A stretch of 64,000 bases of DNA from an uncultured delta proteobacterium (GCA_963826785.1 CAWGYD010000006.1:512001-576000), one strand, 5' to 3'. Positions 49,226 to 64,000 are shown, numbered from the stretch's first letter. Made by a program: numbers and translations. Notes: a model not told the origin generated them from the sequence alone.

Positions 49226-50536
49226 ATGAAAAAATGGATTCTGGTCATGATGGTTGCTTGTTTTCTGGGGACGCCCCTGTCGGCCGAGGAACTGTTTTCG
49301 GCGACGAAAGCGGGCGATTTGAGCGATATGACGCATTTGGGGGGTGCGCTGTACAGGGATCTGACGCTTTCCTTTAACGCAAATGAGGCCTGCATGACCT
49401 GCCATCATCCTTCCGCCGGGTTCGCGGATCAGGCAGACCGCATTGACCCGGTGAATCTGCCCGTTTCGGCAGGGTCGGTGGCGGGAATGTTCGGCGGGAG
49501 AAACGCGCCTTCATCGGCCTATGCCGGTTTTGCCCCTTGTTTTTATTATGATGCGGACGAAGGATTGTTTCTGGGCGGCGCCTTCTGGGATGGCCGGGCC
49601 ACGGGAAATCTTTCTCTGGGAGGCGCTCTTGCGGTTCATGATCCGCTGGCGGAACAGGCCATGGGACCGTTTTTAAATCCTGTGGAAATGGCTGTTCCGG
49701 ATGCGGAGATGCTGGTGGCGCTGGTCAAGAATTCAGCATATGCCGACCTTTTTCTCAAGGTTTTCGGACCGGAAGCCTTCGATGACACCCAACTGGCTTA
49801 TGAGTACATCGGGATCGCCATCGCGGATTTTGAGCATTCCCACTTTATTAACCGGTTTAGTTCCAAGTTCGACAAGTTTGTGGCCGAGCAGGGCGGGGAG
49901 GTCGATGATTTCGGAGTTGAGGTGGAGGACAGCGGATTTCGGAAATATGTCGGTCCGCCGAAAAAGTTTAAGTCCAAATACCTGACCTATGACGAGGCCG
50001 ACGGTCTGGCCCTGTTCAATGCCGATTCAGGCGTGCAGTTGGAAAATGACGGCAGCAGCGTGGGCGGCATGTGCTATCTGTGCCATCTGACGGAAAATGG
50101 TCCGGAGGCGAATGCGCCGCTGCTGACCGATTTTTCCTATGATAATCTTGGAATTCCCAAAAACGATAGAATCGAAGCGCTGGCCGGGTTTCAGGAGACG
50201 GATTACGGGCTGGGGGCCCGGGTGGAGCAGCTTGAAACCGCGTGTCCGGAATGTGCTTTCACCTACAATGAAAATGAGACGGTGATCGAGGAAGAAGCCG
50301 GCAAATTCAAGGTACCCACGCTTAGGAATGTCGAAAGATCAGCACCTTATGGACACAACGGCTATTTTCCGGACCTGCTTTCCATCGTTCATTTCTATAA
50401 TGTCAGAAATTCCATGACAGAAATAGCGGCCGAAGTTCCTTCCACCGTAAATGAGGAAGAACTCGGCAACCTGGGGCTCTCCCCGGACCAGGAGGCAAAA
50501 ATCGTACTGTTTTTGAAAACCCTGACCGACCGTTGA
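49226..50536 (+). CDS. Di-heme cytochrome c peroxidase / MauG-family protein
   Basis: Signal peptide; CMTCH and CYLCH; RNAPS, FWDGRA, GPFLNPVEM, GKFKVPTLRNV, PYGHNG. Confidence 0.9.
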   Translation: MKKWILVMMVACFLGTPLSAEELFSATKAGDLSDMTHLGGALYRDLTLSFNANEACMTCHHPSAGFADQADRIDPVNLPVSAGSVAGMFGGRNAPSSAYAGFAPCFYYDADEGLFLGGAFWDGRATGNLSLGGALAVHDPLAEQAMGPFLNPVEMAVPDAEMLVALVKNSAYADLFLKVFGPEAFDDTQLAYEYIGIAIADFEHSHFINRFSSKFDKFVAEQGGEVDDFGVEVEDSGFRKYVGPPKKFKSKYLTYDEADGLALFNADSGVQLENDGSSVGGMCYLCHLTENGPEANAPLLTDFSYDNLGIPKNDRIEALAGFQETDYGLGARVEQLETACPECAFTYNENETVIEEEAGKFKVPTLRNVERSAPYGHNGYFPDLLSIVHFYNVRNSMTEIAAEVPSTVNEEELGNLGLSPDQEAKIVLFLKTLTDR

Positions 50537-50594: not shown

Positions 50595-51263
50595 CTATTT
50601 CAAAGCGGTTTGGGATTTTTCCAGAGAGTTTAACACCACCTCCACGTGGGCGGAGGCGAACTGTCGGAATGTGTCTGCGGCGGCATCCGGGTCATTGCGG
50701 GCGATGCTCTCATACCCCTTGCGCAGGTGGCTGACCACTTTTTTGAGCTGGTCCGGCATGTAGGTGATGGACATCCACTGGACCCGCTCCGCGGTGGGCA
50801 TGAGTTCCAGGGCGATGCGTTCGATGATGGGATTTCCGGACATTCTCAGAACTTTGTGGGCCATCCGGGTGACGTTGATCAGGTAGAGATCAAAGTCGTT
50901 TTCATCGATGCTCTTTTCCAGGTTGGCCAGCTCCGTTTTCAGATCGGCGATGTCATCAGGAGTGGCGTTTCTGGCGGCATTGGCGAAGGCATATTGATAG
51001 AGTACAATAGCCGTGTCATAGAGGTGGCCGATCAGTTCAACGGAAAGCTCGGTCACCTGGTATCCTTTGGGCGTTTTATCCACCAGCCGGATCTGCTCGA
51101 GCCGCAAAAGCGCATCCCGGACCGGGCTTCGGCTGACGCCCAGGTCCTTGGAGACCTGGGATTCATGGATCGGTTCGCCGGATTTCAGTTCATTTCGGAT
51201 GATCTTTTTTCCGATAATCTCGATGATCTGATCCGACAAATTGTTTCGTGCCAGCGCTTCCAT
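50595..51263 (-). CDS. GntR (FadR/FCD-type) transcriptional regulator
   Basis: LKSGEPIHESQVSKDLGVSRSPVRDALLRLE HTH; helical C-terminal domain. Confidence 0.88.
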   Translation of the reverse strand: MEALARNNLSDQIIEIIGKKIIRNELKSGEPIHESQVSKDLGVSRSPVRDALLRLEQIRLVDKTPKGYQVTELSVELIGHLYDTAIVLYQYAFANAARNATPDDIADLKTELANLEKSIDENDFDLYLINVTRMAHKVLRMSGNPIIERIALELMPTAERVQWMSITYMPDQLKKVVSHLRKGYESIARNDPDAAADTFRQFASAHVEVVLNSLEKSQTALK

Positions 51264-51269
51264 TCGATG

Positions 51270-51512
51270 CTAACCCTCTTGCGGCTCAAGTGCTGACATG
51301 GAAACGGCCCCCGCGAGGCACTCCTTCTCACAGGCATGGCAGCCGATGCATTTTTCAGGTGCGGCTAAAAACGGGTATCGCCGAAATCCCCGGGTGCTGT
51401 TGGCAATGTGGAGGTCTAAAGCGCCGGTGGGGCAGATCTCGGTGCACATGGAACAGGCCCAGCAGAGTTCCCGGTCAAAAAGGGGGGTCGATATATTCTT
51501 TTTTGCCTTCAT
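51270..51512 (-). CDS. 2x[4Fe-4S] ferredoxin
   Basis: CWACSMCTEICP and CIGCHACEKEC. Confidence 0.85.
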   Translation of the reverse strand: MKAKKNISTPLFDRELCWACSMCTEICPTGALDLHIANSTRGFRRYPFLAAPEKCIGCHACEKECLAGAVSMSALEPQEG

Positions 51513-51560
51513 GTCGTTGCGATCCTTTTCGGACTTGAATATCGTATTTGTCTTTTGATT

Positions 51561-52310
51561 TCAGTTAAATGGTTTCCACACGGTTTGGGCCCGGGTGATG
51601 ATTTTTCCGGTGTTTTTACTGAAAAGCGCATGGGCAAACTGCGGGGCCGGATTTTCATGCACCTGTTGGGCCCGGGAGATGATCCGGTCCCCATAGAGGG
51701 ATTCACCGATATAGTGGATATCGATCTCGCAGGGCCTATATCCCCGGATGACGGCTTCGGGAACGGTTTCCAGCGCCCAGACGATATAAACCGAATTGTT
51801 CACGTGGGTATTGAAATCCAGATCATGCATCCGGATGTTGAAGATGCGCTCCGCATCGGTATTTGCCGGTTCGGGTATGGCAGCGAAATTATCTTCAACC
51901 GGACGCTGGCATCCGGACAGCATGGCCTCCGGCAGGCCCTTGCTGAGGCGGACCGGCTTTTTGCCTGCCAGACTGACGACGATCCAGCAGCTTCTGGCGG
52001 CAATCAACAGCTTTTCATGGTCATCGTAGATTTCAAATTCCCTGAGCTCATATAGATTTTTATGGGGATACCGCCAGGTGACGGCCCGGAGGGAATCGTT
52101 CCAGCCCGGATAATGGTGTAAGGCGATGTGGTATTTCACCACCACCCAGGCAAATCCGTTCCGGAAAAGATCATTCGATGATGCCCCCATGCGCCCGCAG
52201 TGCCGGCTCATGATATCCTGGAAGATGTTTAAGGCCGCCACCGGCTTGATCATCCCCCTGACTCCGGTATCGGCATAGCGCACCCGGATGTTCTGTTCAT
52301 ATAAATCCAT
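51561..52310 (-). CDS. Acyl-ACP/acyl-CoA thioesterase (double hotdog)
   Basis: VRYADT, WVVVKY, DLDFNTHVNNSVY. Confidence 0.85.
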   Translation of the reverse strand: MDLYEQNIRVRYADTGVRGMIKPVAALNIFQDIMSRHCGRMGASSNDLFRNGFAWVVVKYHIALHHYPGWNDSLRAVTWRYPHKNLYELREFEIYDDHEKLLIAARSCWIVVSLAGKKPVRLSKGLPEAMLSGCQRPVEDNFAAIPEPANTDAERIFNIRMHDLDFNTHVNNSVYIVWALETVPEAVIRGYRPCEIDIHYIGESLYGDRIISRAQQVHENPAPQFAHALFSKNTGKIITRAQTVWKPFN

Positions 52311-52345
52311 GAGATTATCAGTTCCCCCGCCGGGGCCGGGGGGTG

Positions 52346-54286
52346 TCACGGTTCCACTTTTTCCGCAGGTTTTCCGGTTTCCTTGTCCCATCCGAACTGC
52401 TGCCAGTAGTCGGCCACCATCTTGTCGATGTTGACTTGCCGGTTTTTGTTGGCGCCTTTTTCCATGGGGGGGTAGCCCAGGGCCCGGGGGTTGGGCCGGA
52501 TCGATTTCGGGTCGATGCCGTGTTTGATATTAAAGGCCTGCTTTAAGGTCTGGAGTCGTTTGCCCATTTCCATGTATTCGGCCGGAGTCTTGTCCCATCC
52601 GGCGGCCGCATTGATCCATTCGAACACCGGCATCCGGTCGGCCCCCAGAAAAGCCCCGAAGGCGCATCCGCCCGCGCCGTTTAACACATTGACGAAGTTG
52701 CTGCAGGCCGCGGCCATTTTGGCCTTCTTCTGTGTGGCGCGGTACTTGCCCGCCTTGCGGTACATCAGCCACGGCTTGGGCAGGGTCTTGTCCTTTTTCC
52801 ACAGCCTGTACATCTCATAATACATCTGGGAGCCGATGGTGTGGCGCCCCGGAGTGGGCTCCACGGAATAGTGGACGGCAAATCCGGGATCAAACCGGCT
52901 GTCGTGCATGGGCAGTTCCTGGCCGCCGGAATGGATGGCGTACTGGTGAGCCCCTTTGCCGATGCGCTCGGCGGCCTTTTTCACCCCGTCGGCCAGGATG
53001 TCGCCAATCCCGTCCCGGGCGACCATCTTTTCTATCAGGGCGATCATGGCGTCGGTGTTCCCCCAGGTCAGCTCCAGTCCATCCGCGTCGGCTTTGGTCA
53101 GGATGCCCTTTTCATAACATTCCATGGCAAAGGCGATGGCGGTTCCCGCCGAAATGGTGTCCATTCCGGCCCGGTTGAGCATGTCGTTCATGAGGAAAAT
53201 AGCATCGAGATCATCGTTTAACACGAGGCCGGACAGGGCCAGCACCGTCTCGTACTCGGGCTTGTGCCCTTCGCCGGAAGGGAATTTGCCCGTGCAGATG
53301 CCGCCGCACCCCAGGGGACATGAGTAGCAGTGATACTTTGCGATCTCCTTTTCCAGAAACAGGTCCGGGTTGATGGCATTGGACTTTTCCTTGGGAAAGT
53401 CAAGGTTGGAGCCGCCCCAGTTCTTGATGGGGGAGTCTCCCATTTCGGTGGCGTACTGGTTGATGGCCACGGTACCCCATTTGCGCAGCATGATCTTCCA
53501 CAGCATGCCGTCCACGGCCGTCTGCATGGGCAGAAACCGGAGCAGGGCCCCGACAATCCGCAGGCCCTTGCCGGACAGGAACCAGGGCTGAAACTGCACC
53601 CACTTGTTGCACGCCTGGGACAGGGATTTGACCGCTTCGGGGTTGCTGGCCTCAATCTTTTTGTTGCCGTCGAGGACCACCGCTTTTAACTTCTTGGACC
53701 CCATGACCGCACCCAGGCCCGAACGGGCGGCCATGCGGCCCATGTCATTGGAGACCCCGGAGATCAGGGACAGCTTCTCCCCGGCCGGACCGATGCAGGC
53801 CACCCTTGGTTTTCGCCTGTCCCTGAGTTCGGCAATGAGCATCTCCTCGGTCTCTAAAGCATCTTTTCCCCACACATGAGCGGCGTCTTTGAGTTCGGCC
53901 TTGTTGTTTTTAATGTGCAGATAAACCGGTTTGTCGCTTGCGCCGGTAAAAAAAATGCCGTCATACCCGCAGCGTTTGATGGCCGGAGAAAACGTGCCGC
54001 CGCAGTTGGCCTCGCCATAGCCCCCGGTCAAGGGCGATTTGCCCACCACCATCCACCGGCCGGTAAAGAGACTGCCCGTTCCGGTGAGCAGCCCCGACAC
54101 AAACCCCAGCATGTTGTCCGGCCCCAGGGGATCGGCCCCTTCCGGGATGTCGTTGTAGAGCATAAACCCGCCCAGGCCGGATCCGGCCAGAAACTTCTCA
54201 TAAACGGAATCGGGTATCTGCTGCTCCTCCATGGTGCCGTCGGTGAGATTGACTTTCAGGACCTTGCCCATGTATCCGTTTGGCAT
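52346..54286 (-). CDS. Aldehyde:ferredoxin oxidoreductase family (W/Mo-pterin) protein
   Basis: GYMGKVLKVNL, KSPLTGG, AARSGLGAVMGSKKLKAV, CYSCPLGC, PEYET, DTIS. Confidence 0.92.
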   Translation of the reverse strand: MPNGYMGKVLKVNLTDGTMEEQQIPDSVYEKFLAGSGLGGFMLYNDIPEGADPLGPDNMLGFVSGLLTGTGSLFTGRWMVVGKSPLTGGYGEANCGGTFSPAIKRCGYDGIFFTGASDKPVYLHIKNNKAELKDAAHVWGKDALETEEMLIAELRDRRKPRVACIGPAGEKLSLISGVSNDMGRMAARSGLGAVMGSKKLKAVVLDGNKKIEASNPEAVKSLSQACNKWVQFQPWFLSGKGLRIVGALLRFLPMQTAVDGMLWKIMLRKWGTVAINQYATEMGDSPIKNWGGSNLDFPKEKSNAINPDLFLEKEIAKYHCYSCPLGCGGICTGKFPSGEGHKPEYETVLALSGLVLNDDLDAIFLMNDMLNRAGMDTISAGTAIAFAMECYEKGILTKADADGLELTWGNTDAMIALIEKMVARDGIGDILADGVKKAAERIGKGAHQYAIHSGGQELPMHDSRFDPGFAVHYSVEPTPGRHTIGSQMYYEMYRLWKKDKTLPKPWLMYRKAGKYRATQKKAKMAAACSNFVNVLNGAGGCAFGAFLGADRMPVFEWINAAAGWDKTPAEYMEMGKRLQTLKQAFNIKHGIDPKSIRPNPRALGYPPMEKGANKNRQVNIDKMVADYWQQFGWDKETGKPAEKVEP

Positions 54287-54501
54287 ACCGACCTCCTTTT
54301 TCTAAGGGGGAACTTATATTCAAATTCCCATGAAAACGCTTCTATTGAAATGAGCTGGAGTTTTTCCAGATCAGCGGGAAAAAAGAATCCGGTAAAGAAC
54401 CCCGGATTCAGTTCTATTTTTCAAAAACCCCCAATGACGGGAGGCAATTCTTTTTACGCGTTCATCCGTATGGGATAAAAAGTGTGCATTTCGTTCAGGC
54501 G

Positions 54502-55680
54502 CTACACCTTGACCCGGACCTCCGACGGCTTCAGCAGGGGAAGAAACACCGTGCGGGGTTTGGATGTCATCTCGATGTTGTTTTTGGGGCACTGATAGGC
54601 GCATTGGCCGCAGCCGATGCACTTGTCGGCGTTGAGCGTCATTATTTTATCCTCGATGGAAACGGCGGTGGTGGGACAGAACCGCTCGCACAGGCCGCAC
54701 CCCTTGCAGTTCGCATCATTTTTCACCCGGGCCAGAAAGTGGCTCTCGTATTTCAGCGACACGGCCCCCATGTTGTATGCTTTGAGAATGCCGCAGCAGT
54801 CCCAGCAGCAGTTGCAGATCGCGAGCACCGGCAGACGAATATCGTCGCGCTCGTGAATGACCGTGTGAACCGCCCCCTTGTCCCGCACCGCCCTGAGGAT
54901 GGAAAGCGCTTCTTCCTGGTCGATGCTCCGCCCGTAGCCGAAATCCACCCAGGCTTTTGCCATTTCCCCGAAGGCCATGCAGGAATCCTCGGGCATCTTG
55001 TGGCTGCAGGATTTATCCAAAACATCGGCCGCCCGGCGGCATACGCAGGGGAAAATGGAGATCGCGTTTTTGCCGCCAAATTCCCGGACCAGGTTGTCCA
55101 CGTAGGCAGTGGGGTATACCTTTGATTCGGGTGCCGACAAGGACGCATCGATGGGGATGATTTTCTTCTTTTTGCCTGTCGAAGCCAGGGCGGGACTGAG
55201 GATGCCCACTCCCTGAGCGGGTTTAAAGAAGGGCTTCATGGCCATATTCTGGAGGGGCCGCAGCGGCACAAAATTAAATCGGGCAAAAAACTGGAAGAAT
55301 TCTTCCCATTTTTTTGAAAAGGCTTTGATTTCGGGTTTGCCGACCAGATAATGCATCATGGCCTCGTACCACCCCACTGCGATGGCATTCAGCCGGTACT
55401 GGCCATTTCCGCCTGCATCGATATCCCGATGCAACAGGCCCTTGCGGTTCAGCGTATCAAAAAAAGCGTCAAATTCATCTGAGGCCATGCCGCTTTGTTT
55501 GGCCGCGGCTGCATAGGACAGGTGGCCGGTCCCCAGTTTCAACAGGTAGTCGAGTTCCCGGTCGGTCACCGACATGTCCATCATCTCCACCAGGGGCGTG
55601 GCCACCGGGATGAACCGCTCGTTCTGCTTGTTCATTCGAGAAAGCAGCGCTTTGATTTTCTTCTTGCGTGTATTTGTCAT
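54502..55680 (-). CDS. Multi-cluster 4Fe-4S protein
   Basis: CVCR, ICNCCWDCCG, CKGCGLCERFCP, CIGCGQCAYQCP. Confidence 0.85.
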   Translation of the reverse strand: MTNTRKKKIKALLSRMNKQNERFIPVATPLVEMMDMSVTDRELDYLLKLGTGHLSYAAAAKQSGMASDEFDAFFDTLNRKGLLHRDIDAGGNGQYRLNAIAVGWYEAMMHYLVGKPEIKAFSKKWEEFFQFFARFNFVPLRPLQNMAMKPFFKPAQGVGILSPALASTGKKKKIIPIDASLSAPESKVYPTAYVDNLVREFGGKNAISIFPCVCRRAADVLDKSCSHKMPEDSCMAFGEMAKAWVDFGYGRSIDQEEALSILRAVRDKGAVHTVIHERDDIRLPVLAICNCCWDCCGILKAYNMGAVSLKYESHFLARVKNDANCKGCGLCERFCPTTAVSIEDKIMTLNADKCIGCGQCAYQCPKNNIEMTSKPRTVFLPLLKPSEVRVKV

Positions 55681-55717
55681 GAGGGTCCTCCTGCATTTGC
55701 ACTAAGTGAACAGCTGC

Positions 55718-56503
55718 TTAATTTGAATAACCCGGCAAGCCGAATTGCGCAAGACACTTTCGAATGGAACCAAGCGCCGGCGGGTCTTTGATATCGAGCA
55801 GGCTGGTTCCGGCCATGTCCGCGCGCCGGACCACATCATCTTCCGGGATCCAGCCCAGGCAATCAAGTCCGGGGACCATGTCGATGCCGCCCATTTCAAC
55901 TTCATCCCGGACCCGGTTTACGATGAGTCCGGCTGCCTCGTAATCGATGGTGCCATCCGATACGTCCTTGATGGTCCTGGCCACATTCAGCCCCCGGGCC
56001 GAAGCGTCCGAGACCAGGAGAAGGTGGGTGACCTTTTCCATGACCCGGCGGTTGACCTGCTCGATGCCGGCTTCCCCGTCGATGACCACCACGTCGAAGT
56101 TGCCGGAGAGATCGGCGATAATATCCTTTAAAATGTGGTTCACCTGGCAGTAGCACCCTTCCTTTTCGGGGCGGCCGATGGCCAGGAAGGCCAGGTTGTC
56201 CCGTTCCTTCAACGCGGAGAACAGCTCGTAATCGAGACGCGAGAGGATCGTCTGCCGGTCGGCGGATTTACCCTCCTGCACCCGGGCGATGAGGTCGTTG
56301 CGGATGTCGTCCACCGTCTTGTGTACGCTAACCCCCAGGGCCGATGCCAGCCCCACGGCCGGATCCGCATCGATGGCCAGCACCCGGCGGTCGGGGTTTT
56401 CCAAAGCCAGCCGCACGATCAGGGCGCTCAGGGAAGTCTTTCCCACGCCTCCCTTGCCGCAGACGGCAATCACAATTGGCCGTTTATATTTCATTTTATC
56501 CAT
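55718..56503 (-). CDS. CooC/AcsF-type metal-insertion ATPase
   Basis: GKGGVGKT deviant Walker A, DADP, GCYC metal motif, DGEAGIEQVNR. Confidence 0.85.
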   Translation of the reverse strand: MDKMKYKRPIVIAVCGKGGVGKTSLSALIVRLALENPDRRVLAIDADPAVGLASALGVSVHKTVDDIRNDLIARVQEGKSADRQTILSRLDYELFSALKERDNLAFLAIGRPEKEGCYCQVNHILKDIIADLSGNFDVVVIDGEAGIEQVNRRVMEKVTHLLLVSDASARGLNVARTIKDVSDGTIDYEAAGLIVNRVRDEVEMGGIDMVPGLDCLGWIPEDDVVRRADMAGTSLLDIKDPPALGSIRKCLAQFGLPGYSN

Positions 56504-56577
56504 AATTTATCGATTTATTCGCACTTGTGTACTTGTGAGGTGCCAGCGTTTATTTCAGCAGTCGTTTAGGGCGTGGC

Positions 56578-56741
56578 TGACGGGCGCGCAAACAGGGATC
56601 CGGCCGCTCAGTGATATTTTTGCCGGACGGGAACAGGTTTCGAGCGGAATCGTACTTTGCGATAATCGGCGAATTCCCGTTTGATTTCCGATGCAAAAAT
56701 CTCAAATTTCGCTTGCCGGACCCCTGTTTACGTACCCGTCA
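56578..56741. repeat. Long imperfect palindromic (MITE-like / hairpin) element
   Basis: 27-bp arms 56578-56604 and 56715-56741 (4 mismatches) with inner complementary blocks. Confidence 0.75.
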
Positions 56742-56808
56742 GGAGATTGGGCGCTGAAATTTCGTTCATGAGCATTTTGCAGGAACTTAAAGCAATAAGC
56801 AAACCGCA

Positions 56809-57540
56809 TCAATTCCCTTTTCCCTTCATTGCGCGATGCACCGCCCGCAGATCCGCAACATCCTCGCATATGGCATTGTACTCGCATTCGTCGCAGTCGA
56901 AGGTGAGGTCATCGGCCATTTTGTTCATGGCGCCGATGATGCTCGATACGCCGGAGGCGATCTGCTGCAGTTTGATCACATCGTCTTTGCCCGAAGTGAC
57001 GAAAAGCACTTCCGCGGCATGGACATAGTCGAGATTTAAAAATTGATCGATCAGGCCCCCGCCCAGGGTTTGGAACGAAAATCCACCAAAAAGCGCTTCT
57101 TTGCTCACCCGGCTCCATTCCCGGCCGTACTGGGAGACCGCCCGCATCATGTAGCCCTTCAGGTGAAGGTCGTAGCGTAAAAGCTCCATCTCCCGGTACC
57201 GGTCATAGCTGTTGTCCGCGTCAAAACCGGTGCCGCCCAGCAGGACCACCTTGCCGAAAGATGCCTGCCGGCCCGAAAGCGCCGCAAGATCAGGGCCGAT
57301 GAGGGTGATCCGGCCGTGCTTGATTTTTTCCGGGTCGTTGATCCAGATGAGAAAGGAGGCGGAGGCGTCTTTTGGATTTCCCAGTTCCACGGCGGTATCC
57401 TGGGCCATCACCAGGTTCCGGTTTCTGTCCGTGGGCCATGATATCTGTCCCCGGTGGACATGTTCGGAAAAATCCGCCCGGCCGCGGTTCGTATCCATGA
57501 AAGCCCGGATGTACTCAATTTGCTGTTCAAATAGTTCCAT
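56809..57540 (-). CDS. Short CO dehydrogenase/acetyl-CoA synthase beta-subunit (CdhC)-like protein
   Basis: VELG, GRITLIGPDL, YMMRA, WSRVSKEAL..GFSF..LG echo ACS middle-domain motifs; C-terminal CDECEY..IC. Confidence 0.65.
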   Translation of the reverse strand: MELFEQQIEYIRAFMDTNRGRADFSEHVHRGQISWPTDRNRNLVMAQDTAVELGNPKDASASFLIWINDPEKIKHGRITLIGPDLAALSGRQASFGKVVLLGGTGFDADNSYDRYREMELLRYDLHLKGYMMRAVSQYGREWSRVSKEALFGGFSFQTLGGGLIDQFLNLDYVHAAEVLFVTSGKDDVIKLQQIASGVSSIIGAMNKMADDLTFDCDECEYNAICEDVADLRAVHRAMKGKGN

Positions 57541-57545
57541 TCAGC

Positions 57546-58946
57546 CTACAGCAGCCCCCTTACCTGGAAGAACTCGTCCAGCCGGTCTTTCGTGGCTTCC
57601 CAGGATTCCACCCGGTCGTCAAAGGCATCGTCGTACATGATATGCACCGGAAAATTTTGTTTTTCGATCTCCCTGGCAAAGGGCTTGACCATCCCCCAGG
57701 TGTTGCGGCAGCCCGGGGTGCCGTTGTAGATCACGCAGTCCGCCTGGTAGAGCCTCGCGCAGGCGAGCGTCTCTTCCAGCCACTGGCCGTGCCGGTCATA
57801 GGGGCCCCGGATGGAGCGGACCATGGGCATCCGGGCGTTCATCTGGGCAATGGAATCCAGCATGGCCTCCGGAGAGGAGGTGTCGATGTCATAGGTGTTG
57901 TCCGGCAGGTCTTTGCTGTATTTGTTCCCCGCCCGGAAATTGCGGGTCAGGATGGAGCCGGTGTGGGCGATGCCCCGGGCTTCCAGGTAGTGATAGAAGT
58001 TCATGTCCACGGTGTAGTGATCGATATAGCACATGACCAGGCGCAGCTTCTCCTCTCCGCAGGAAAGCCCGGGCACGCCTCCGGCGATTCTGCGGCGGGC
58101 GGTATCCACCATCACTTCCAGCAGCTCGGTGTACTCCGGGTCCCCGGAAAAGCAGAACCGGCCCGCATAGATCATCAGTGAAAAGATGGGCGGGATGGGG
58201 GTGGGGACCAGCATGAGCATGTCCTCCATCTCCGCGGTCAGGGCATCCTGCTTCCCGATCTCGGCCAGAATCTTCGCCAGCCGGTCATAATCGAGTTTTT
58301 TGCCGGAATGCTTCTCAATGAAATCGATCATGGTCTTGTAGTCGTCGATGTGATACTGCTGGGAGCGCTCATCGCCGATGGTGCTGGGGTAGTTGAGCTG
58401 GTAAAAGGGCTTATCCAGGTATGTGGCGGCAAAGGCGAACGCGTTGGCGTTGGTGTCGCACACCCCGGGAGTGTCGCAGATGACAAAATCGATTTTTTCG
58501 CACAGCCCCGCCAGGTAAGCCCCCAGAAAGCCGCGCTGGGAAGAGCAGGAGGTTTCCGGCATCCCCACCTCCACGCAGAAATCCATGTAGTCGAACATCC
58601 CCCGCTTCCATACCATGGAGCCGATGGCGGTCAACACCTCAAAGGTGGCCGGCACGATGTCCATGGCATAGAGGATGGCCGGGGTGCTGCAGAAGGTGGT
58701 GGCGGCAATCGGCTTCCCCTGGGCTCTGGCGGTAAGGATGTTCTCGTAGTATTTTCCCAAAAGTTTTAGAAAGCGGATGCCCGGCGGACCGGCTTCGATG
58801 AAGGACCGGACCACGTCGCTGTAGTTGGGGATATACCGGTATGTGTTCTCGATTTCCTTGGATGTCCCGGCCGGCAGCAGGGCTGCGGTGGCCAAGGTCC
58901 TCCCCATCACCCAGTCGTAGGGGTATTCTTTGATTTCGGGTCTCAT
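57546..58946 (-). CDS. 2-hydroxyacyl-CoA dehydratase / benzoyl-CoA reductase family subunit (paralog 2)
   Basis: ILYAMDI, ETSCSSQRG, CDTPGVCD, GTPGCR, DAFDDR. Confidence 0.85.
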   Translation of the reverse strand: MRPEIKEYPYDWVMGRTLATAALLPAGTSKEIENTYRYIPNYSDVVRSFIEAGPPGIRFLKLLGKYYENILTARAQGKPIAATTFCSTPAILYAMDIVPATFEVLTAIGSMVWKRGMFDYMDFCVEVGMPETSCSSQRGFLGAYLAGLCEKIDFVICDTPGVCDTNANAFAFAATYLDKPFYQLNYPSTIGDERSQQYHIDDYKTMIDFIEKHSGKKLDYDRLAKILAEIGKQDALTAEMEDMLMLVPTPIPPIFSLMIYAGRFCFSGDPEYTELLEVMVDTARRRIAGGVPGLSCGEEKLRLVMCYIDHYTVDMNFYHYLEARGIAHTGSILTRNFRAGNKYSKDLPDNTYDIDTSSPEAMLDSIAQMNARMPMVRSIRGPYDRHGQWLEETLACARLYQADCVIYNGTPGCRNTWGMVKPFAREIEKQNFPVHIMYDDAFDDRVESWEATKDRLDEFFQVRGLL

Positions 58947-58991
58947 TTTCCGCTTACTCCGTAAATGTTAATCGCCATGCTGTGGAAGTTC

Positions 58992-59774
58992 TTACCGCTT
59001 TGCCTTCTCCCGCGCATACAGCGCCGCGCCCAGCGCGCCCATGATCTGGGGATCGGCGCCGTTTAATGATTTCATGTGGATTTCAAGAGTTTCGCCCAGG
59101 GCGGCAAATACCCCCTGGTTTTTGGCCACTCCGCCGGTCATGACCACGTCGTGGGCCATATCGATGCTTTTGGCCAGAGAGGCCACCCGCCGGGCCAGGG
59201 CGTGGTGCAGGGCGTTGATGATGTCCGCGGTCTCCTTCCCTTCGTTGACCAGCGAGATCACCTCGGTTTCCGCAAAAATCACGCACTGGTTGGAAATGGA
59301 AAGCCTTTCCGTGGACTGGGCCCCGATTTCGCCCATCTTGTCCAGGGGAATTTCCAGGGCTTCGGCCATGACCTCTAAAAAGCGTCCGGTGCCCGAGGCG
59401 CATTTGTCGTTGTAGATGTATCGGGCCACCTTGCCGCTGTCGTCCAGCCGGGTCGCCTTGGCATCCTGGCCGCCGATGTCGATGATCATGCGTACAGAGG
59501 GCATGAGGTGAAAGGCGCCCTTGGCGTGGCAGGAGATTTCCGATTCCACGCTGTCCACGAAAGGGATCTGCTCACGGCCGTAGCCCGTGCCCACCATGCA
59601 TTGAATGTCTTCCATGGACAGGCCCGCCTTTTGGAGGGCCGCCCCCATCACCTCTATGGCAGATTCGGCCGGCCGCGTCCGGGCCCGCATCACCGCATCG
59701 GCGACAATTTTATCCCCCTCCAGGATGACCGCCTTGGCCGTCAGGGACCCGATATCACATCCTGCGACAATCAT
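58992..59774 (-). CDS. ATP-dependent CoA-substrate-specific activase (ASKHA; HgdC/BcrAD-like)
   Basis: GCDIGS, TGYGR, EISCHAKG, DIGGQD, NDKCASGTG, CVIFAETE, TGGVAKN. Confidence 0.92.
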   Translation of the reverse strand: MIVAGCDIGSLTAKAVILEGDKIVADAVMRARTRPAESAIEVMGAALQKAGLSMEDIQCMVGTGYGREQIPFVDSVESEISCHAKGAFHLMPSVRMIIDIGGQDAKATRLDDSGKVARYIYNDKCASGTGRFLEVMAEALEIPLDKMGEIGAQSTERLSISNQCVIFAETEVISLVNEGKETADIINALHHALARRVASLAKSIDMAHDVVMTGGVAKNQGVFAALGETLEIHMKSLNGADPQIMGALGAALYAREKAKR

Positions 59775-59869
59775 TTAGTTTTCTCCTGTGTGCTTTTTTA
59801 AAATTCACAATTCACTATGGACAACCTCTTTAAAGCCCCCGCTCTCAAATGAATCGTGCATGGTCAATT

Positions 59870-60670
59870 TTATGAAGCTTTCCGCTGCCCGTTGACCTTC
59901 TCCCAGGATAGAAGCGCCGCGCCAATGGCGCCGGCGATCTGGGGGTCGGCCTTGCGGGTCTTTTTGATGGTTTTGCCCAGAAGCTTCTCCAGCGTGGAAA
60001 CCACCCCGATGTTCTTGGCCACGCCGCCGGACATGAAGATGTCGCCTTCGGGTTTTACCGCATTGACCAGGATGGCCACCCGGGCGGCCATGGCCGTGTT
60101 GATCCCCGCGCCGATGTCCTCGAGGGGCACCCCGGAATTGATGTACTTGATCACATCCGCCTGGGCCCACACCGTGCAGGTGGAGGCCAGGGTAATGGGG
60201 TTTTTGGCCGAAAGGGAGAGTTTGCCCAGCTCCTCCATGCTCACACCGAGGACCTTGGCCATGACCTCCAGAAACCGCCCCGTTCCCGAAGCGCACTTGT
60301 CGTTGGCCATGAATTTGACCACGTTGCCGTCTTCATCGATGCGCATGGTCTTGCAGTCCTGGCCGCCGATGTCGATGACCGTCTTGGCCGACGGCATCAG
60401 CCAGCGGGCGCCTCTGCCGTGGCAGGAGATTTCAGACACCGATTCATCCACAAACCCGATCCGGTCCCGGCCGTAGCCGGTGCCGATGCAGTATTTGATT
60501 TCGTCCCTGCCGATTCCGGCTTTTTCCAGCACCGCGGCCATGACCGCATCCGCAGAGTCCCCGGGCCGGGGTTTGGATTTGATGATGGCGCTGGCCACAA
60601 TCCGGTTGTTTTTCATGATCACGGCTTTTGAGGTCAGTGATCCGACATCGCAGCCTAAAACGTAATTCAT
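59870..60670 (-). CDS. Second ATP-dependent activase (ASKHA; HgdC/BcrAD-like)
   Basis: GCDVGS, TGYGR, EISCHGRG, DIGGQD, NDKCASGTG, STCTVWAQAD, SGGVAKN. Confidence 0.92.
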   Translation of the reverse strand: MNYVLGCDVGSLTSKAVIMKNNRIVASAIIKSKPRPGDSADAVMAAVLEKAGIGRDEIKYCIGTGYGRDRIGFVDESVSEISCHGRGARWLMPSAKTVIDIGGQDCKTMRIDEDGNVVKFMANDKCASGTGRFLEVMAKVLGVSMEELGKLSLSAKNPITLASTCTVWAQADVIKYINSGVPLEDIGAGINTAMAARVAILVNAVKPEGDIFMSGGVAKNIGVVSTLEKLLGKTIKKTRKADPQIAGAIGAALLSWEKVNGQRKAS

Positions 60671-62067
60671 AACAGCCCCCTTACGTGAAAGAATTCATCC
60701 AGGCGGTCTTTGGTGGCATCCCATGACTCCACCCGGTCGTCGAATGCATCGTCGTACATGATGTGGGTGGGAAACCCGTTTTTCTCCATGTCCCTGGCAA
60801 AGGGCTTGACCATCCCCCAGGTGTTGCGGCATCCCGGCGTGCCGTTGTAGATCACGCAGTCGGCCTGGGTGAGTTTCGCCAGGGCCAGGGATTCCTCCAG
60901 CCACATACCTTTGCGATCGTAGGGGCCGCGGATGGAGCGGACCATGGGGAGCCGCGCGTTCATCTGGGCGATGGAGTCGAGCATGGCCTCCGGGGTGGAG
61001 ATGTCGATCCCGTAGGATGAACCCTCCATGCCCTTGACATATTCGTTGTTATCCGCAAAATTGCGGGTCAGGATGGAGCCGGTGTGCCCGATGCCCCGCT
61101 CCTCCAGGTAATTCCAGAACTTGAGATCCACCGTGTAGTGATCGATATAGCACATGAATACGCGCAGCTTTTCCTCCCCGGATGTCAGGCCGGAAAGCCC
61201 TGTCCTTGCCTTTTCCCGTGTGGCCGAAACCATGGTCTCAAGCAGGTCCGTGAATACTTTCTGGCCGGAGAACAGGAAACGGCCGGCATACAGCGCCAGG
61301 TTGTAGATGGGGGGAAAGGGGATGGGAACCAGAAGCTGCATGTCCTCCAGTTCGGAAATCAGCGCATCCTGCCTGTTCACCTCCCCAAGGGCTTCGGCCA
61401 GGCGGTCGTAGTCCAGCTTCCGCCCCGAATGTTCCTCGATGAAGGCGACCATGGCCTTGTAGTCGTCGATGTGATACTTCTGTGACCGGTCATCGCCGAT
61501 GGCGCTGGGGTAGTTGAGCTGGAAAAAGGGGATGTGCAGGTATTCCGAGGCAAAGGAAAAGGCGTTGGCATTGGTGTCGCACACGCCGGGGGTATCGCAG
61601 ATGACCATATCGATCTTTTCAGTCAGCCCGGAAAGGATCGCCCCCAGGGCGCCCCGCTGGGAAGAGCAGGAGGTCTCGGGCATGCCCGCTTCCACGCAGA
61701 AATCGAAATAATCGAACATGCCCCGTTTCCATATCAGCTGGGCCAGGCCCGTCCATATTTCGAAGGTGACCGGTACCAGGTCCATGGCATACAGGATCAC
61801 CGGCGAGTTGCAGAAGGTGGTGCCCACGATCTTTTTCCCCTTCGATCGGGCATTCAGCACGTTCTCGTAATAGAGTGCCAGCAGATTGAAGAGCTTGATC
61901 CCCACTTCCCCGGCATTGAAAATGGTACCGGCGCTATCCTTGTAAGCCGGGATATAGCGCAGGACCAGTTCGGTCTCCCTGGCGGTGCCCAGCGGCACCC
62001 GGGAAGCCGCCGAAAGCGTCTTTCCCATCAGCCAGTCGTAATTGTATTCGGTCATCTCGGGCCGCAT
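60667..62067 (-). CDS. 2-hydroxyacyl-CoA dehydratase / benzoyl-CoA reductase family subunit (paralog 1)
   Basis: Starts MRPEMTEYNYDW; colinear with 57546 gene, same Cys motifs. Confidence 0.85.
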   Translation of the reverse strand: MRPEMTEYNYDWLMGKTLSAASRVPLGTARETELVLRYIPAYKDSAGTIFNAGEVGIKLFNLLALYYENVLNARSKGKKIVGTTFCNSPVILYAMDLVPVTFEIWTGLAQLIWKRGMFDYFDFCVEAGMPETSCSSQRGALGAILSGLTEKIDMVICDTPGVCDTNANAFSFASEYLHIPFFQLNYPSAIGDDRSQKYHIDDYKAMVAFIEEHSGRKLDYDRLAEALGEVNRQDALISELEDMQLLVPIPFPPIYNLALYAGRFLFSGQKVFTDLLETMVSATREKARTGLSGLTSGEEKLRVFMCYIDHYTVDLKFWNYLEERGIGHTGSILTRNFADNNEYVKGMEGSSYGIDISTPEAMLDSIAQMNARLPMVRSIRGPYDRKGMWLEESLALAKLTQADCVIYNGTPGCRNTWGMVKPFARDMEKNGFPTHIMYDDAFDDRVESWDATKDRLDEFFHVRGLL

Positions 62068-62115
62068 ATGTTTGATCCTATTTGCTTTTGCGGGTTTAGG
62101 GGTTTCGTTCCGGCG

Positions 62116-62396
62116 AAACACCCCCCTGACCCCCCTCAAGGGGGGAATCTACAGGTGTTAATCCCCCTCAAGGGGAAACACCCCCCTAACCCCCCTCAAG
62201 GGGGGACTGTGAAAAGGGGGACTGTGAAAAACGGATTCCCCCCTTAGAGGGATGGCCATTATGCTTGTGGATTCCCCCCTTGAGGGGGGCGAAGGGGGGT
62301 GTTCCCACGCCGGTCACCACATCCATCTTTAAATCCATACACAAGGGGGAATCCACAATCGTAATAATCCCCCCTTGAGGGGGGTTGGGGGGTGTT
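62116..62396. repeat. Array of REP-like palindromes (four full, about two partial copies, both orientations)
   Basis: AACACCCCCCT(G/A)ACCCCCCTCAAGGGGGGA at 62117 and 62177; reverse copies at ~62271-62303 and 62367-62396. Confidence 0.85.
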
Positions 62397-63561
62397 CAAC
62401 CCGCTTTTTTCTGCTTCTCCCGGCCGGTCATCCGCTCCAGGAAGGCGTTGATCCGAAGCTTCATCCGGCCCGCGTCGATATGGGGGCCGTATTCGCGCTC
62501 CACCCGCAGGCAGGGGATGCCCATTTCCTCCAGGTCCCGCTCGAACAGCGCGTTTTCCGCGCCGTGCAGGTCGCAGAAGCGGATGTTCTGCATGATCACC
62601 CCGTCGGCCTTGGACCGGACGATCCGCTCCTTTAAGAAGGCTCAGCCGTTCCTTGTATTTGCCGAACATGCGGGGGCAGACCGACGACCCCAGGTAATGC
62701 TCGGCCAGAGCCGCAACCGGATCGCCGTCTTCGGCAATCTCTGTGCCCTCGTAGCGGATGCCGAAGCACAGGTTCTCCCCCACCACCAGGGCTTTTTCCG
62801 TGTTTTCGATCAGCTCGAACAGGTCGATCTCGTCGCTGACGCTCCCCACCACCAAAATCGCGCTTTTTGCCTGCGTTTAACGCTTTTTTCCGGCGTTTCA
62901 GGTTGGTGATCCAGGCTTTGAGTTCCCTGGTGTATTCGTCTCTGGGCATCACCGTGCCGGCCACGGTGGCGGCAAAGGCATCGGTGCCCGTGACCACCAC
63001 ATCATCCTGGGCCCGAAGGTCCTCCAGTTCCCGGAGCAGCCGGCGCCCCTGGTTGAATTCGGAAATGGCGGCGCTGAGCTTGTCAGGGGTGATGGAAACC
63101 TTGAAGTGGTCCTCCACGCTTTTGATCAGAAGCTTGATTTCCTCGATGTACCAGTCCATGCCGTGGGCTTCGGCCTTGTGGGGAACGTCGAAGTAATAGA
63201 AGTAATCGGGGACGATCCCTTCGTAGTCCTCGCCCGCTTTTCGCCAGCATTCATCCAGCCGCCGCATGCCGTCGCACCCCGGGGTGATGATGGCCCCGTC
63301 CAGAAAGGAAAACTTGCCTTTGCCCGCCAGCTGCAGGATGCACTTGGGAAAGGTGCAGATAAACGGCCCGAAATAGGTGTCCCCCACCTCGGTCCCCTCG
63401 GTTTCGATCCCCCGCAGGCGCACCGGCAGGATGTTTGCGGCATAAAAGATCTCACCCGGGGTGTAGGAGCAGGTATAGCCCACCACAGGCTTCCCTGACT
63501 GCTTCCAGGCCATAATGGACTGGCTGTTGACCTTTGTGGCCGCATCATAGAAGATATCCAT
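62396..63561 (-). CDS. 2-hydroxyacyl-CoA dehydratase beta / BcrC-like subunit; frameshifts ~62865 and ~62635
   Basis: VGYTCSYTPGEI, ICTFPK, GCDGMRR, ENLCFG, CPRM, RFCDLHG, LRINAFLE across three frames. Confidence 0.82.
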
Positions 63562-63564
63562 CGC

Positions 63565-64000
63565 CTACACCTCCTGTTGGTTGAACAGTTCGCCCAGGGA
63601 CTGTCGGGCCGCCTGTGCATCGTCTTCATATTCGTCGTCTGCGGGTTTCAGGACCTGCACGATCCAGTTGACCAGTCCCGGCACCACGGCCCGGGCCGCA
63701 GGGGATGGCTGCGCCTGGCTGAAAATTTTGCGTGAAGCTTCGGCAAGCTCGTAATCGTCTATGGCCGACAGAAACTGGCCGATAAATCCGGAAATGGATT
63801 CGGGCTGCGCATCTCCCACCCGGTTGAACAGCCGCAGGGTCTGGTTGACCACCTCGGCCGCCTCCTGAACGTCATAGGCGTTAAGACTTCGCGATACCGA
63901 CCCGGCGGCCTCGGCGTCATCCAGTGCCTCCCAGAAGGAAAGCCGGCGGTTTACGGTTTTGACCCGGATGTTGGTGATTTCCGGCCCCTTGATCAGGGCG
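63565..64000 (-). CDS. Hypothetical helical protein, 5' end beyond window
   Basis: Frame open from 63999 (ALIKGPEITNIRV...) to stop at 63565; its end contains the GGAGG RBS of the next gene. Confidence 0.7.
   Translation of the reverse strand, partial: ALIKGPEITNIRVKTVNRRLSFWEALDDAEAAGSVSRSLNAYDVQEAAEVVNQTLRLFNRVGDAQPESISGFIGQFLSAIDDYELAEASRKIFSQAQPSPAARAVVPGLVNWIVQVLKPADDEYEDDAQAARQSLGELFNQQEV

Follow-up and report, generated by a model that had tools for sequence, protein, structure and literature searches.

An apparently undescribed BCR/HAD-family operon with a truncated acetyl-CoA synthase-like protein and its own CooC-type ATPase

We analysed a stretch of 64,000 nucleotides from an uncultured delta proteobacterium (GCA_963826785.1, CAWGYD010000006.1:512001-576000), hereafter the window, which corresponds to G000:C6:512001-576000 in an 11-contig genome that is 88% complete. 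From position 50,595 to its end, the minus strand of the window carries a cluster of genes for an ATP-driven radical enzyme. The operon is real, conserved and apparently undescribed: it encodes a member of the benzoyl-CoA reductase/2-hydroxyacyl-CoA dehydratase (BCR/HAD) family and with it an unexplained accessory pair, consisting of a truncated relative of acetyl-CoA synthase (ACS), here called mini-ACS, and a CooC-type ATPase. Judged from gene content and ligand motifs, its architecture is that of a class I (Bzd-type) reductase, and the phylogeny of the catalytic subunits places it in a well-supported separate subfamily. We propose that it specifies an enzyme for the ATP-driven reduction of a lipophilic acyl-CoA other than benzoyl-CoA, one that brings beta-oxidation to a halt, a proposal whose chances we judge to be evenly balanced. 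To our knowledge, only a handful of BCR/HAD enzymes have been characterised.

Gene content and conservation of the operon

Gene content was established by listing open reading frames (ORFs) and by family scans (Pfam and NCBIfam). The unit, transcribed from the minus strand, begins beyond the window with the gene of a GMC-family FAD oxidoreductase (C6:577069-578448; Pfam GMC_oxred). This is followed by a conserved hypothetical gene (G000:C6:575565-577121; 486-518 aa), the last 144 codons of which lie in the window (63565..64000), by the HGD-D beta gene (62396..63561; PF06050), and by alpha 1 (60667..62067; PF06050, 466 aa). Next come ASKHA activase 1 (59870..60670), which belongs to an orthologous clade of its own with the motif CTVWAQ, and activase 2 (58992..59774), from a separate group with QCVIFAE; they are 47% identical, carry two cluster Cys each and score 256 and 233 bits with TIGR00241 (cut-off 125). 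Alpha 2 (57546..58946; 466 aa, 68% identical to alpha 1) precedes the genes of mini-ACS (56809..57540; 243 aa) and of the CooC/AcsF-type ATPase (55718..56503; Pfam CbiA among others). The remaining genes encode a Cys-rich Fe-S protein with a C-terminal 2x[4Fe-4S] domain (54502..55680), an aldehyde:ferredoxin oxidoreductase of the AOR type (52346..54286), an acyl-ACP-type thioesterase (51561..52310; PF01643, PF20791), a 2x[4Fe-4S] ferredoxin recognised by family scan (51270..51512) and, as the last of the operon, a GntR/FCD regulator (50595..51263; PF00392, PF07729). An earlier note made from the window alone had listed the genes within it in this order, and all of them are confirmed. Its list requires amendment in that the beta gene is a broken ORF, the unit runs beyond the window and the protein called CdhC-like comprises only the ACS middle domain and three Cys; it had also overlooked that beta is frameshifted, that a GMC gene lies upstream and that beta carries the signature of a double cubane.

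A strong mini-ACS match was found in 30 of 61 genomes, namely the host, 25 of 36 sampled relatives from the same family of sulfate reducers and 4 of 24 others; this marker of the operon is thereby present in several further families too. The related loci come from metagenome-assembled genomes of Desulfobacterales (Desulfosalsimonadaceae, Desulfobacteraceae, Desulfosudaceae and others); loci of greater distance belong to Syntrophaceae and Leptospirales. Of the 25 loci in the family, some are cut by contig ends; CooC follows mini-ACS in all 25, and the activases are present in 23-24, alpha in 23, beta and the hypothetical gene in 20 each, GMC in 16 and GntR (at >=40%) in 13. AOR, ferredoxin and thioesterase occur in only 8, 6 and 3 of these loci, and the Fe-S protein of the window has no orthologue at >=40% in any of the 25, which makes it specific to the cluster of the host genome; a 22-26% paralogue of it precedes mini-ACS in many of them. 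Since GntR directly follows CooC in at least 8 loci, the 3' block is truly optional, and AOR, ferredoxin and thioesterase are accessory genes. Co-occurrence is far above chance for the core formed by GMC, the helical hypothetical protein, beta, alpha, the two activases, mini-ACS, CooC and GntR, and not so for the 3' block; here, as in the ring-hydrolase comparison below, the counts are limited by the fact that related genomes are not independent. The exact twelve-gene set of the earlier note was met only at the host locus. Its idea of a single pathway thus holds as far as a conserved, probably co-regulated unit for an ASKHA-ATPase-driven BCR/HAD enzyme is concerned, and fails where AOR, thioesterase and ferredoxin were taken as integral.

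Other families of the phylum retain the gene order hypothetical, beta, alpha, activase, activase, mini-ACS, CooC. Outside the host's family, an acyl-CoA dehydrogenase (ACAD) pair is often found upstream, where GMC would be (scanned in locus L100, recognised elsewhere by ORF-start similarity), and in L044 a scanned ACAD pair lies downstream of the cluster. None of the distant clusters was seen to carry AOR, thioesterase, ferredoxin or Fe-S protein, with the exception of one divergent AOR (27%) beside a sister-clade locus. The helical hypothetical protein has no Pfam or PDB match, and its Atlas matches are unnamed clusters at 0.87; short look-alikes of it stand beside ACAD pairs (L044:11300-12442, L100:5667-6804), so that it may belong with the flavoenzymes instead of the reductase. 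Many relatives have a second beta/alpha/activase module after CooC. Such modules, made up of a six-Cys beta, an acidic-motif alpha and a single activase, follow mini-ACS or CooC in L020, L023, L031, L033, L041, L062, L099, L100, L106 and L109, and the same form is found in gut contigs.

The unit starts about 2.6 kb past the window end. There, a promoter-like site (TTGACA-17-TAGTAT) is followed just downstream by three GTCGAC hexamers with a 7-bp period, an operator-like (GTCGAC-N)3 site (C6:578596-578615) about 150 bp before the GMC start. The boundary drawn in the earlier note therefore left out the rest of the hypothetical gene, the GMC gene and this site. As a class, such promoter-like sites occur at chance level (4 vs 3.1 expected). 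The triple hexamer occurs a single time in the 4.4 Mb genome, even allowing two mismatches, so that a regulon search with it yielded no further pathway genes in this genome. One exact site per genome was found in 21 of the 61 genomes, all from the host's family (reversed control, 0); 18 of the 20 relatives having the site also have a strong mini-ACS match, and in 9 of 10 loci fetched the next gene after the site is GMC. FadR-type GntR proteins bind GTCGAC cores, and the GntR regulator of the operon is a candidate binder of the upstream site. The intergenic gaps of the host range from -4 to about 330 bp, and the operon is likely to form one transcript. The unique operator offers a direct experimental route to the substrate via the GntR effector. 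A second GMC paralogue, 66% identical to the first gene of the operon, is located upstream of the promoter (G000:C6:579156-580517); a short stretch of it resembles a compensated frameshift.

Subunits of the ATP-driven enzyme

The available part of the description of BzdNO (PMC11971306) assigns the active site of BzdO to Cys95/128/380, Glu65 and His131, with Tyr97 helping to bind the thioester oxygen. Three Cys and a Glu are likewise present in the alpha subunits of the operon: C134, C163, C413 and E103, found in alpha 2, are invariant in 118 of 118 close homologues. The first 50 residues of alpha 2 align with neither HadB nor BzdO and form a helical N-terminal extension of about 50 residues in its structure model (pLDDT 88). 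A candidate nickel site in alpha, made up of Cys86, Asp309 and His310, was rejected: these residues are invariant in the 118 close homologues and not across the wider mini-ACS-linked clade. In one mini-ACS-linked subclade (L169, L170, L171, L174, L175), His replaces the third cluster Cys within a GHxGHK/R motif.

The phylogenetic position of the subunits was derived from an HGD-D tree of 165 proteins (de-duplicated from 316) and an alpha tree of 54 sequences (SH-aLRT, fast mode), with family-model matches from genomes of the phylum as references; the trees hold no Mbd or HgdAB sequences, and Mbd was compared by PDB only. Both alphas fall in a clade of mini-ACS-linked alphas (SH-aLRT 100) that is separate from the clade (90) holding BzdO, BcrB and HadB-like proteins. 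No HadB exceeded the cut-off in 151 genomes, and the nearest relatives (548 and 506 bits) belong to another clade than the alphas. The NCBIfam scores are correspondingly low: for alpha, 24-26 bits of 449 with BzdO and 28 of 487 with BcrB; for the truncated first frame of beta, 71 bits of 454 with BzdN and 94 of 421 with BcrC; and 33-39 bits of 350 with the DCCP model NF040772. The earlier note had found no match to the canonical hgd, had, bcr or bzd operons, and the phylogeny agrees, placing the subunits in no characterised clade tested; nor did either outcome named there as speaking against its reading appear, as the subunits do not sit inside a characterised clade with the same neighbourhood and the genes do co-occur elsewhere.

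The beta gene of the host reads in three frames, over which all six Cys motifs are present, and comparisons with the PDB were made with the beta of an intact relative. Its best match is BzdN (E 1e-38), followed by MbdN (3e-35) and HadC (3e-32). Of the three, BzdN alone has an aligned Cys at each of the six positions (Cys36/73/100/263/293/327); HadC and MbdN are without several of them, three in the case of MbdN. According to the available part of PMC11971306, the six BzdN-type Cys bind an [8Fe-9S] double cubane, which HADs have lost.

With two +1 shifts within 240 bp, near 62860 and 62628, the beta gene could also be a recent pseudogene and the host operon inactive, whatever its chemistry. A look-up of sequencing runs for 55700-64000 listed none. 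We hold this to be rather unlikely. The family motifs survive in all three pieces, two of which were compared with close relatives and share about 80% identity with them; one insertion sits in an A run, and the promoter-like site, the operator-like site and the other genes are intact. In addition, 21 of 21 related beta genes aligned are intact. A split-gene check flagged 7 of 56 loci, of which 3 are artefacts of tandem paralogues, 1 is beta and 3 lie elsewhere (multi-frame, flagged by the test alone); further split genes in the assembly match an activase and a pyruvate formate-lyase. Because the assembly holds other split genes and all beta pieces keep their motifs, sequencing error appears likelier than pseudogenisation.

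The two activases form two stable orthologous groups, which remain separate also where only one alpha is present. As these groups also lie outside the BzdP-type clade, they suggest an independently evolved heterodimer. In orthologues of activase 1, CxxWAQ (one WVQ) takes the place of the CxxFAE seen in most other activases, which may point to an asymmetric half of the ATPase.

On this basis we envisage a new BCR/HAD subfamily whose enzyme is a heterotetramer and carries out an ATP-driven two-electron reduction. Its two activases would form a heterodimer around a bridging [4Fe-4S] cluster that receives electrons from ferredoxin or flavodoxin, and ATP hydrolysis would drive these electrons into the putative [8Fe-9S] double cubane of beta. 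Beta would store the electrons and hand them over to a [4Fe-4S]-OH2 site held by the three Cys of alpha, whose Glu103 may protonate the product; alpha 1 and alpha 2 would act as alternative catalytic subunits on one shared beta. The substrate would most likely be a lipophilic CoA thioester (conjugated enoyl or dienoyl, alicyclic or alpha-substituted) that stalls beta-oxidation. GMC would oxidise an alcohol to an aldehyde or ketone, and, where they are present, AOR and ferredoxin would yield the acid and low-potential electrons; this route from alcohol to acid and reduced ferredoxin would apply to a minority of the clusters only.

The mini-ACS/CooC pair

Residues 44-235 of mini-ACS align with residues 341-536 of the host's own ACS (hhalign, probability 96%), which is encoded in a full ACS operon on contig C1. 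C216, C219 and C225 of mini-ACS (C216-x2-C219-x5-C225) align with Cys one to three of the A-cluster region in host ACS, which we take to be cluster ligands. On the other hand, compared with host ACS, mini-ACS ends without the fourth cluster Cys and the Cys-Gly-Cys region of the nickel site is absent. All significant Foldseek matches shown are ACS chains. By sequence, therefore, the "ACS-like" protein is not an ACS: it is a middle domain with three Cys, and the ACS-type catalytic step once attributed to it is not borne out, as the chain stops before the fourth Cys and has no nickel-binding motif.

The family comprises 268 clusters at 50% identity (E < 1e-30). The Cys motif is present in 142 of the best 150 representatives, and most of the other 8 look truncated or C-terminally divergent. 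Across the phylum we count 48 copies in 34 of 401 genomes, after removal of nine full-length ACS matches; near 35 newly fetched copies, HGD-D lies within about 8 kb in 27 and CooC in 14. No mini-ACS match was found on plasmids. In a clade from the gut, 78 of 80 contigs, which are redundant and often short, gave an ORF, and CooC is nearby in 50. Gut contigs such as L226, L235, L253, L257 and L269 show mini-ACS and CooC as a two-gene unit with no HGD-D nearby. The deviant Walker A and CxC motifs of CooC are invariant in 21 of 21 aligned sequences, two of which are host paralogues, and an EFR1-family ferredoxin gene adjoins CooC in L100.

A predicted complex of a CooC dimer with mini-ACS reached a score of 0.52 against 0.01 for the best control, with runs agreeing in at least 60% of contacts and a partner pLDDT of at least 78. 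Among solved pairs, 116 of 157 attain the mark applied, and among mismatched pairs 2 of 215; at <=0.60 there are only 18 solved pairs together with both mismatches, so the model lends weak support to binding of mini-ACS to the CooC dimer. We suggest that mini-ACS is a non-catalytic partner that probably holds an Fe-S or metal site on its three Cys and binds CooC, with a role in loading or repairing clusters or in CoA-linked control. For the ACS middle domain, an interaction with CoA is reported in the available part of PMC12289521. Still, an obligatory role of the pair in maturation is weakened by the fact that the double cubanes of BzdNO and DCCP were assembled in E. coli (PMC11971306 and PMC7317905, available parts). 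The pair may have a metal-handling or accessory role.

The most far-reaching form of this idea, which we regard as unlikely, is that the two proteins are devoted to metal handling: CooC would load its partner, a CoA-binding protein with three Cys that derives from ACS, and the loaded protein would either build a heterometallic (nickel-Fe-S) or otherwise special cluster or act as a novel nickel-dependent partner in catalysis. The pair would serve a large branch of ATP-driven radical enzymes that has so far gone unstudied and whose reductive step would unblock beta-oxidation in lipid-degrading anaerobes. Mini-ACS could also itself be the catalyst, with CooC loading nickel on a three-Cys Fe-S site beside the CoA-binding domain and the ATPase/double-cubane module reducing that site, which would amount to a new nickel enzyme acting on acyl-CoA. 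The register of the three Cys, the CoA interaction of the middle domain, the intact CxC of CooC, the occurrence of the pair without HGD-D genes and the weakly supported predicted complex all fit such an enzyme. Nevertheless, we consider it very improbable, given that the Cys-Gly-Cys region and the fourth Cys are missing, that alpha retains a complete substrate-type active site and that no candidate nickel ligand is conserved across all mini-ACS-linked alphas.

Substrate class, alternative reactions and known systems

The ring hydrolase Oah (TIGR03200), the canonical partner of benzoyl-CoA reductases, was found in 11 of the 61 genomes: in none of the 30 with mini-ACS and in 11 of the other 31. 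It was also not found in any of the 37 family genomes including the host (88% complete), in line with the earlier statement that no ring-cleavage genes are visible. Since Oah is found in none of the mini-ACS genomes, benzoyl-CoA is unlikely as the substrate. Four-gene sets of this kind are easily counted as aromatic degradation in metagenome studies, and the Oah result argues against that reading at mini-ACS loci. The neighbourhoods include ACAD pairs (L044, L100), a CoA ligase, an ACAD and a short-chain dehydrogenase/reductase (SDR; L110), and DUF1302, DUF1329 and YCF48-like genes directly after the cluster (L062:14259-18649). Together with the thioesterase and 25 ACAD-domain matches in the host, the ACAD, CoA ligase, SDR and DUF1302/DUF1329 neighbours point to the catabolism of lipophilic acyl-CoAs. 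The AOR was also considered as a BamB (class II BCR) and rejected as such: its best PDB match is 1aor (E 4e-96) vs BamB 4z3w (E 6e-61), and the three best AORs score 289-326 bits vs 210 for BamB. No link emerged to oleate hydratase (1 of 61 genomes) or to an ethylbenzene-dehydrogenase-type hydroxylase (3 of 61, none in the host's family), and of five host glycyl radical enzymes scanned, none exceeded a named cut-off on the stretches scanned.

Several observations weigh against the reductase that we propose. The evidence on its substrate is indirect throughout, and the related genomes compared are not independent. The position of BzdO His131 is occupied by Asn166 in 118 of 118 alpha homologues, and residue 136, at BzdO Tyr97, is Ser in 103 and Ala in 15 of them (sequence alignment); alpha 2 has N166 and S136. 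The best PDB match of the alpha profile is HadB (E 6e-21 vs 2e-15 for BzdO), and the model folds tie (HadB: Z 35.2, rmsd 2.6, 385 aligned; BzdO: Z 34.9, rmsd 2.6, 400 aligned). The activase pair lies outside the BzdP-type clade. Uncharacterised HadB-like pairs commonly show six Cys in beta as well, so that this state, probably ancestral, favours reduction and does not prove it, while the BcrC reference and MbdN are without the pattern although their families are reductases. Only 10 of the 78 mini-ACS contigs of the gut clade are near an HGD-D gene, mini-ACS was not seen beside the related clusters L107 and L108, the double cubanes of BzdNO and DCCP form in E. coli, and the beta gene is frameshifted in the host assembly.

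Alternatively, the enzyme could be a radical dehydratase acting on (R)-2-hydroxyacyl-CoAs with long or bulky chains, which would recycle one ATP-energised electron and convert 2-hydroxy fatty acyl-CoA into an enoyl-CoA that re-enters beta-oxidation. The HadB profile match, the tied fold and the absence of BzdO His131 suit this possibility, as does the best score of both activases with the HadI activator 4eht. In addition, the invariant Cys86 of alpha may sit at HadB Ser37 (the register is uncertain by one residue), which we assume to have a role in that enzyme; ACAD neighbours would fit, and a low ATP cost suits sulfate reducers. Set against this are a six-Cys beta and two different activases, both absent from the solved HAD, NCBIfam scores of 38-42 (HadB) and 79 bits (HadC) vs cut-offs of 750 and 700, and the rarity of oleate hydratase, one source of hydroxy fatty acids. 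We therefore regard dehydration as possible yet doubtful.

We consider it quite improbable that the operon encodes a true aryl-CoA reductase whose substrate carries an unusual ring (fused, heteroaromatic or substituted) and whose product is cleaved by ring-opening enzymes of another kind than Oah. The Bzd-like architecture would agree with this, and the ATP-dependent tetrahydronaphthoyl-CoA reductase offers a precedent, the type I enzyme being described in the sulfate reducers N47 and NaphS2 in the available part of PMC13365417. According to the same part, this enzyme is Azoarcus- or Thauera-type and is encoded beside its pathway genes. In the operon, by contrast, alpha lies outside the BzdO and BcrB clades, Oah was found in none of the mini-ACS genomes, and among the genes that recur in the clusters, where unlabelled ORFs were partly scanned, none was recognised as that of a hydratase, hydrolase or thiolase. 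Reduction of a lipophilic, non-benzoyl acyl-CoA remains our preferred reading.

Around the operon, two plus-strand genes converge on its end: that of an acyl-CoA synthetase (47048-48799), for which MbcS is the best model with a score under its cut-off, and a member of the di-haem cytochrome c peroxidase/MauG family (49226-50536). The gap between beta and alpha 1 (62070-62395) is filled by a cluster of short palindromic repeats of a REP-like family, the core of which, CCCCCTCAAGGGGG, has 227 copies in the genome; the stretch matches about 151 1-kb bins. Further upstream, ORFs at G000:C6:582154-586885 are presumably those of isocitrate lyase (which at 382 aa looks truncated), malate synthase and isocitrate dehydrogenase kinase/phosphatase; if so named correctly, they would give this sulfate reducer a glyoxylate shunt in addition to its full ACS operon. 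The host also has a DCCP (G000:C4:412004) and four further uncharacterised HGD-D pairs (L118, L119, L120, L121).

In the literature covered, which leaves out most subscription papers and supplements, neither the operon nor a truncated ACS with CooC beside such enzymes is described, and the same applies to the available passages of PMC13101534, PMC3582634, PMC10134865, PMC4148979, PMC6006190 and bioRxiv 2022.07.06.499078. New here are the true start of the operon with its operator-like site, the optional nature of AOR, thioesterase and ferredoxin, and the Oah result.

With its HGD-D alpha/beta pair and ASKHA activases, the operon has the components by which the BCR/HAD family (PF06050) is recognised. 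It is most like the Bzd class I BCR (BzdNOPQ of Aromatoleum sp. CIB; PDB 8s02; PMC11971306, available part, where class I BCRs are heterotetramers) in its four-subunit layout, six-Cys beta, two ASKHA activases and an alpha with three Cys and a catalytic Glu. It differs in an alpha that is 18% identical in structural alignment, belongs to a separate clade, has a longer N-terminus and carries Asn for His131 and Ser/Ala for Tyr97, as well as in having two alpha genes, activases of another clade, mini-ACS/CooC and GMC partners, and no Oah found. HadIBC, the 2-hydroxyisocaproyl-CoA dehydratase (PDB 3o3m, 4eht), shares the fold, the three Cys and Glu of alpha and the nearest activase; HadC is without a double cubane and one activator gene gives a homodimer, whereas the operon has a six-Cys beta and two activase genes, and its subunits score far under the NCBIfam cut-offs. 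The 3-methylbenzoyl-CoA reductase MbdONPQ (PDB 9g87, 9gai) and the Thauera-type BcrABCD are likewise heterotetramers with two ATPase subunits; MbdN is without three of the six Cys and the alpha fold matches Mbd less well (Z 31.1, rmsd 2.9, 391 aligned), and the BcrB reference sits in a clade other than that of the operon's alphas. DCCP and DCCP-R (PDB 6eno, 7yyl; PMC7317905, available part) share the double-cubane ligands of beta and the ATP-driven electron input, but DCCP is a homodimer with six Cys in both halves, against three in alpha. Finally, AcsB/CdhC with CooC/AcsF resemble mini-ACS and its neighbour in the middle-domain fold, the first three cluster Cys and the adjoining CooC-type ATPase; mini-ACS differs in being without the N-terminal domain, the fourth Cys and the nickel-site motif, and the cluster has no CODH (carbon monoxide dehydrogenase) or corrinoid genes. 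By these sequence comparisons, the operon stands apart from the Bzd enzymes in clade, active-site residues and pathway context, and from the HAD, DCCP and ACS systems as well, while the mini-ACS family with its CooC would show the ACS middle domain put to a use not yet described, and is a candidate for a new metal-maturation or nickel system.

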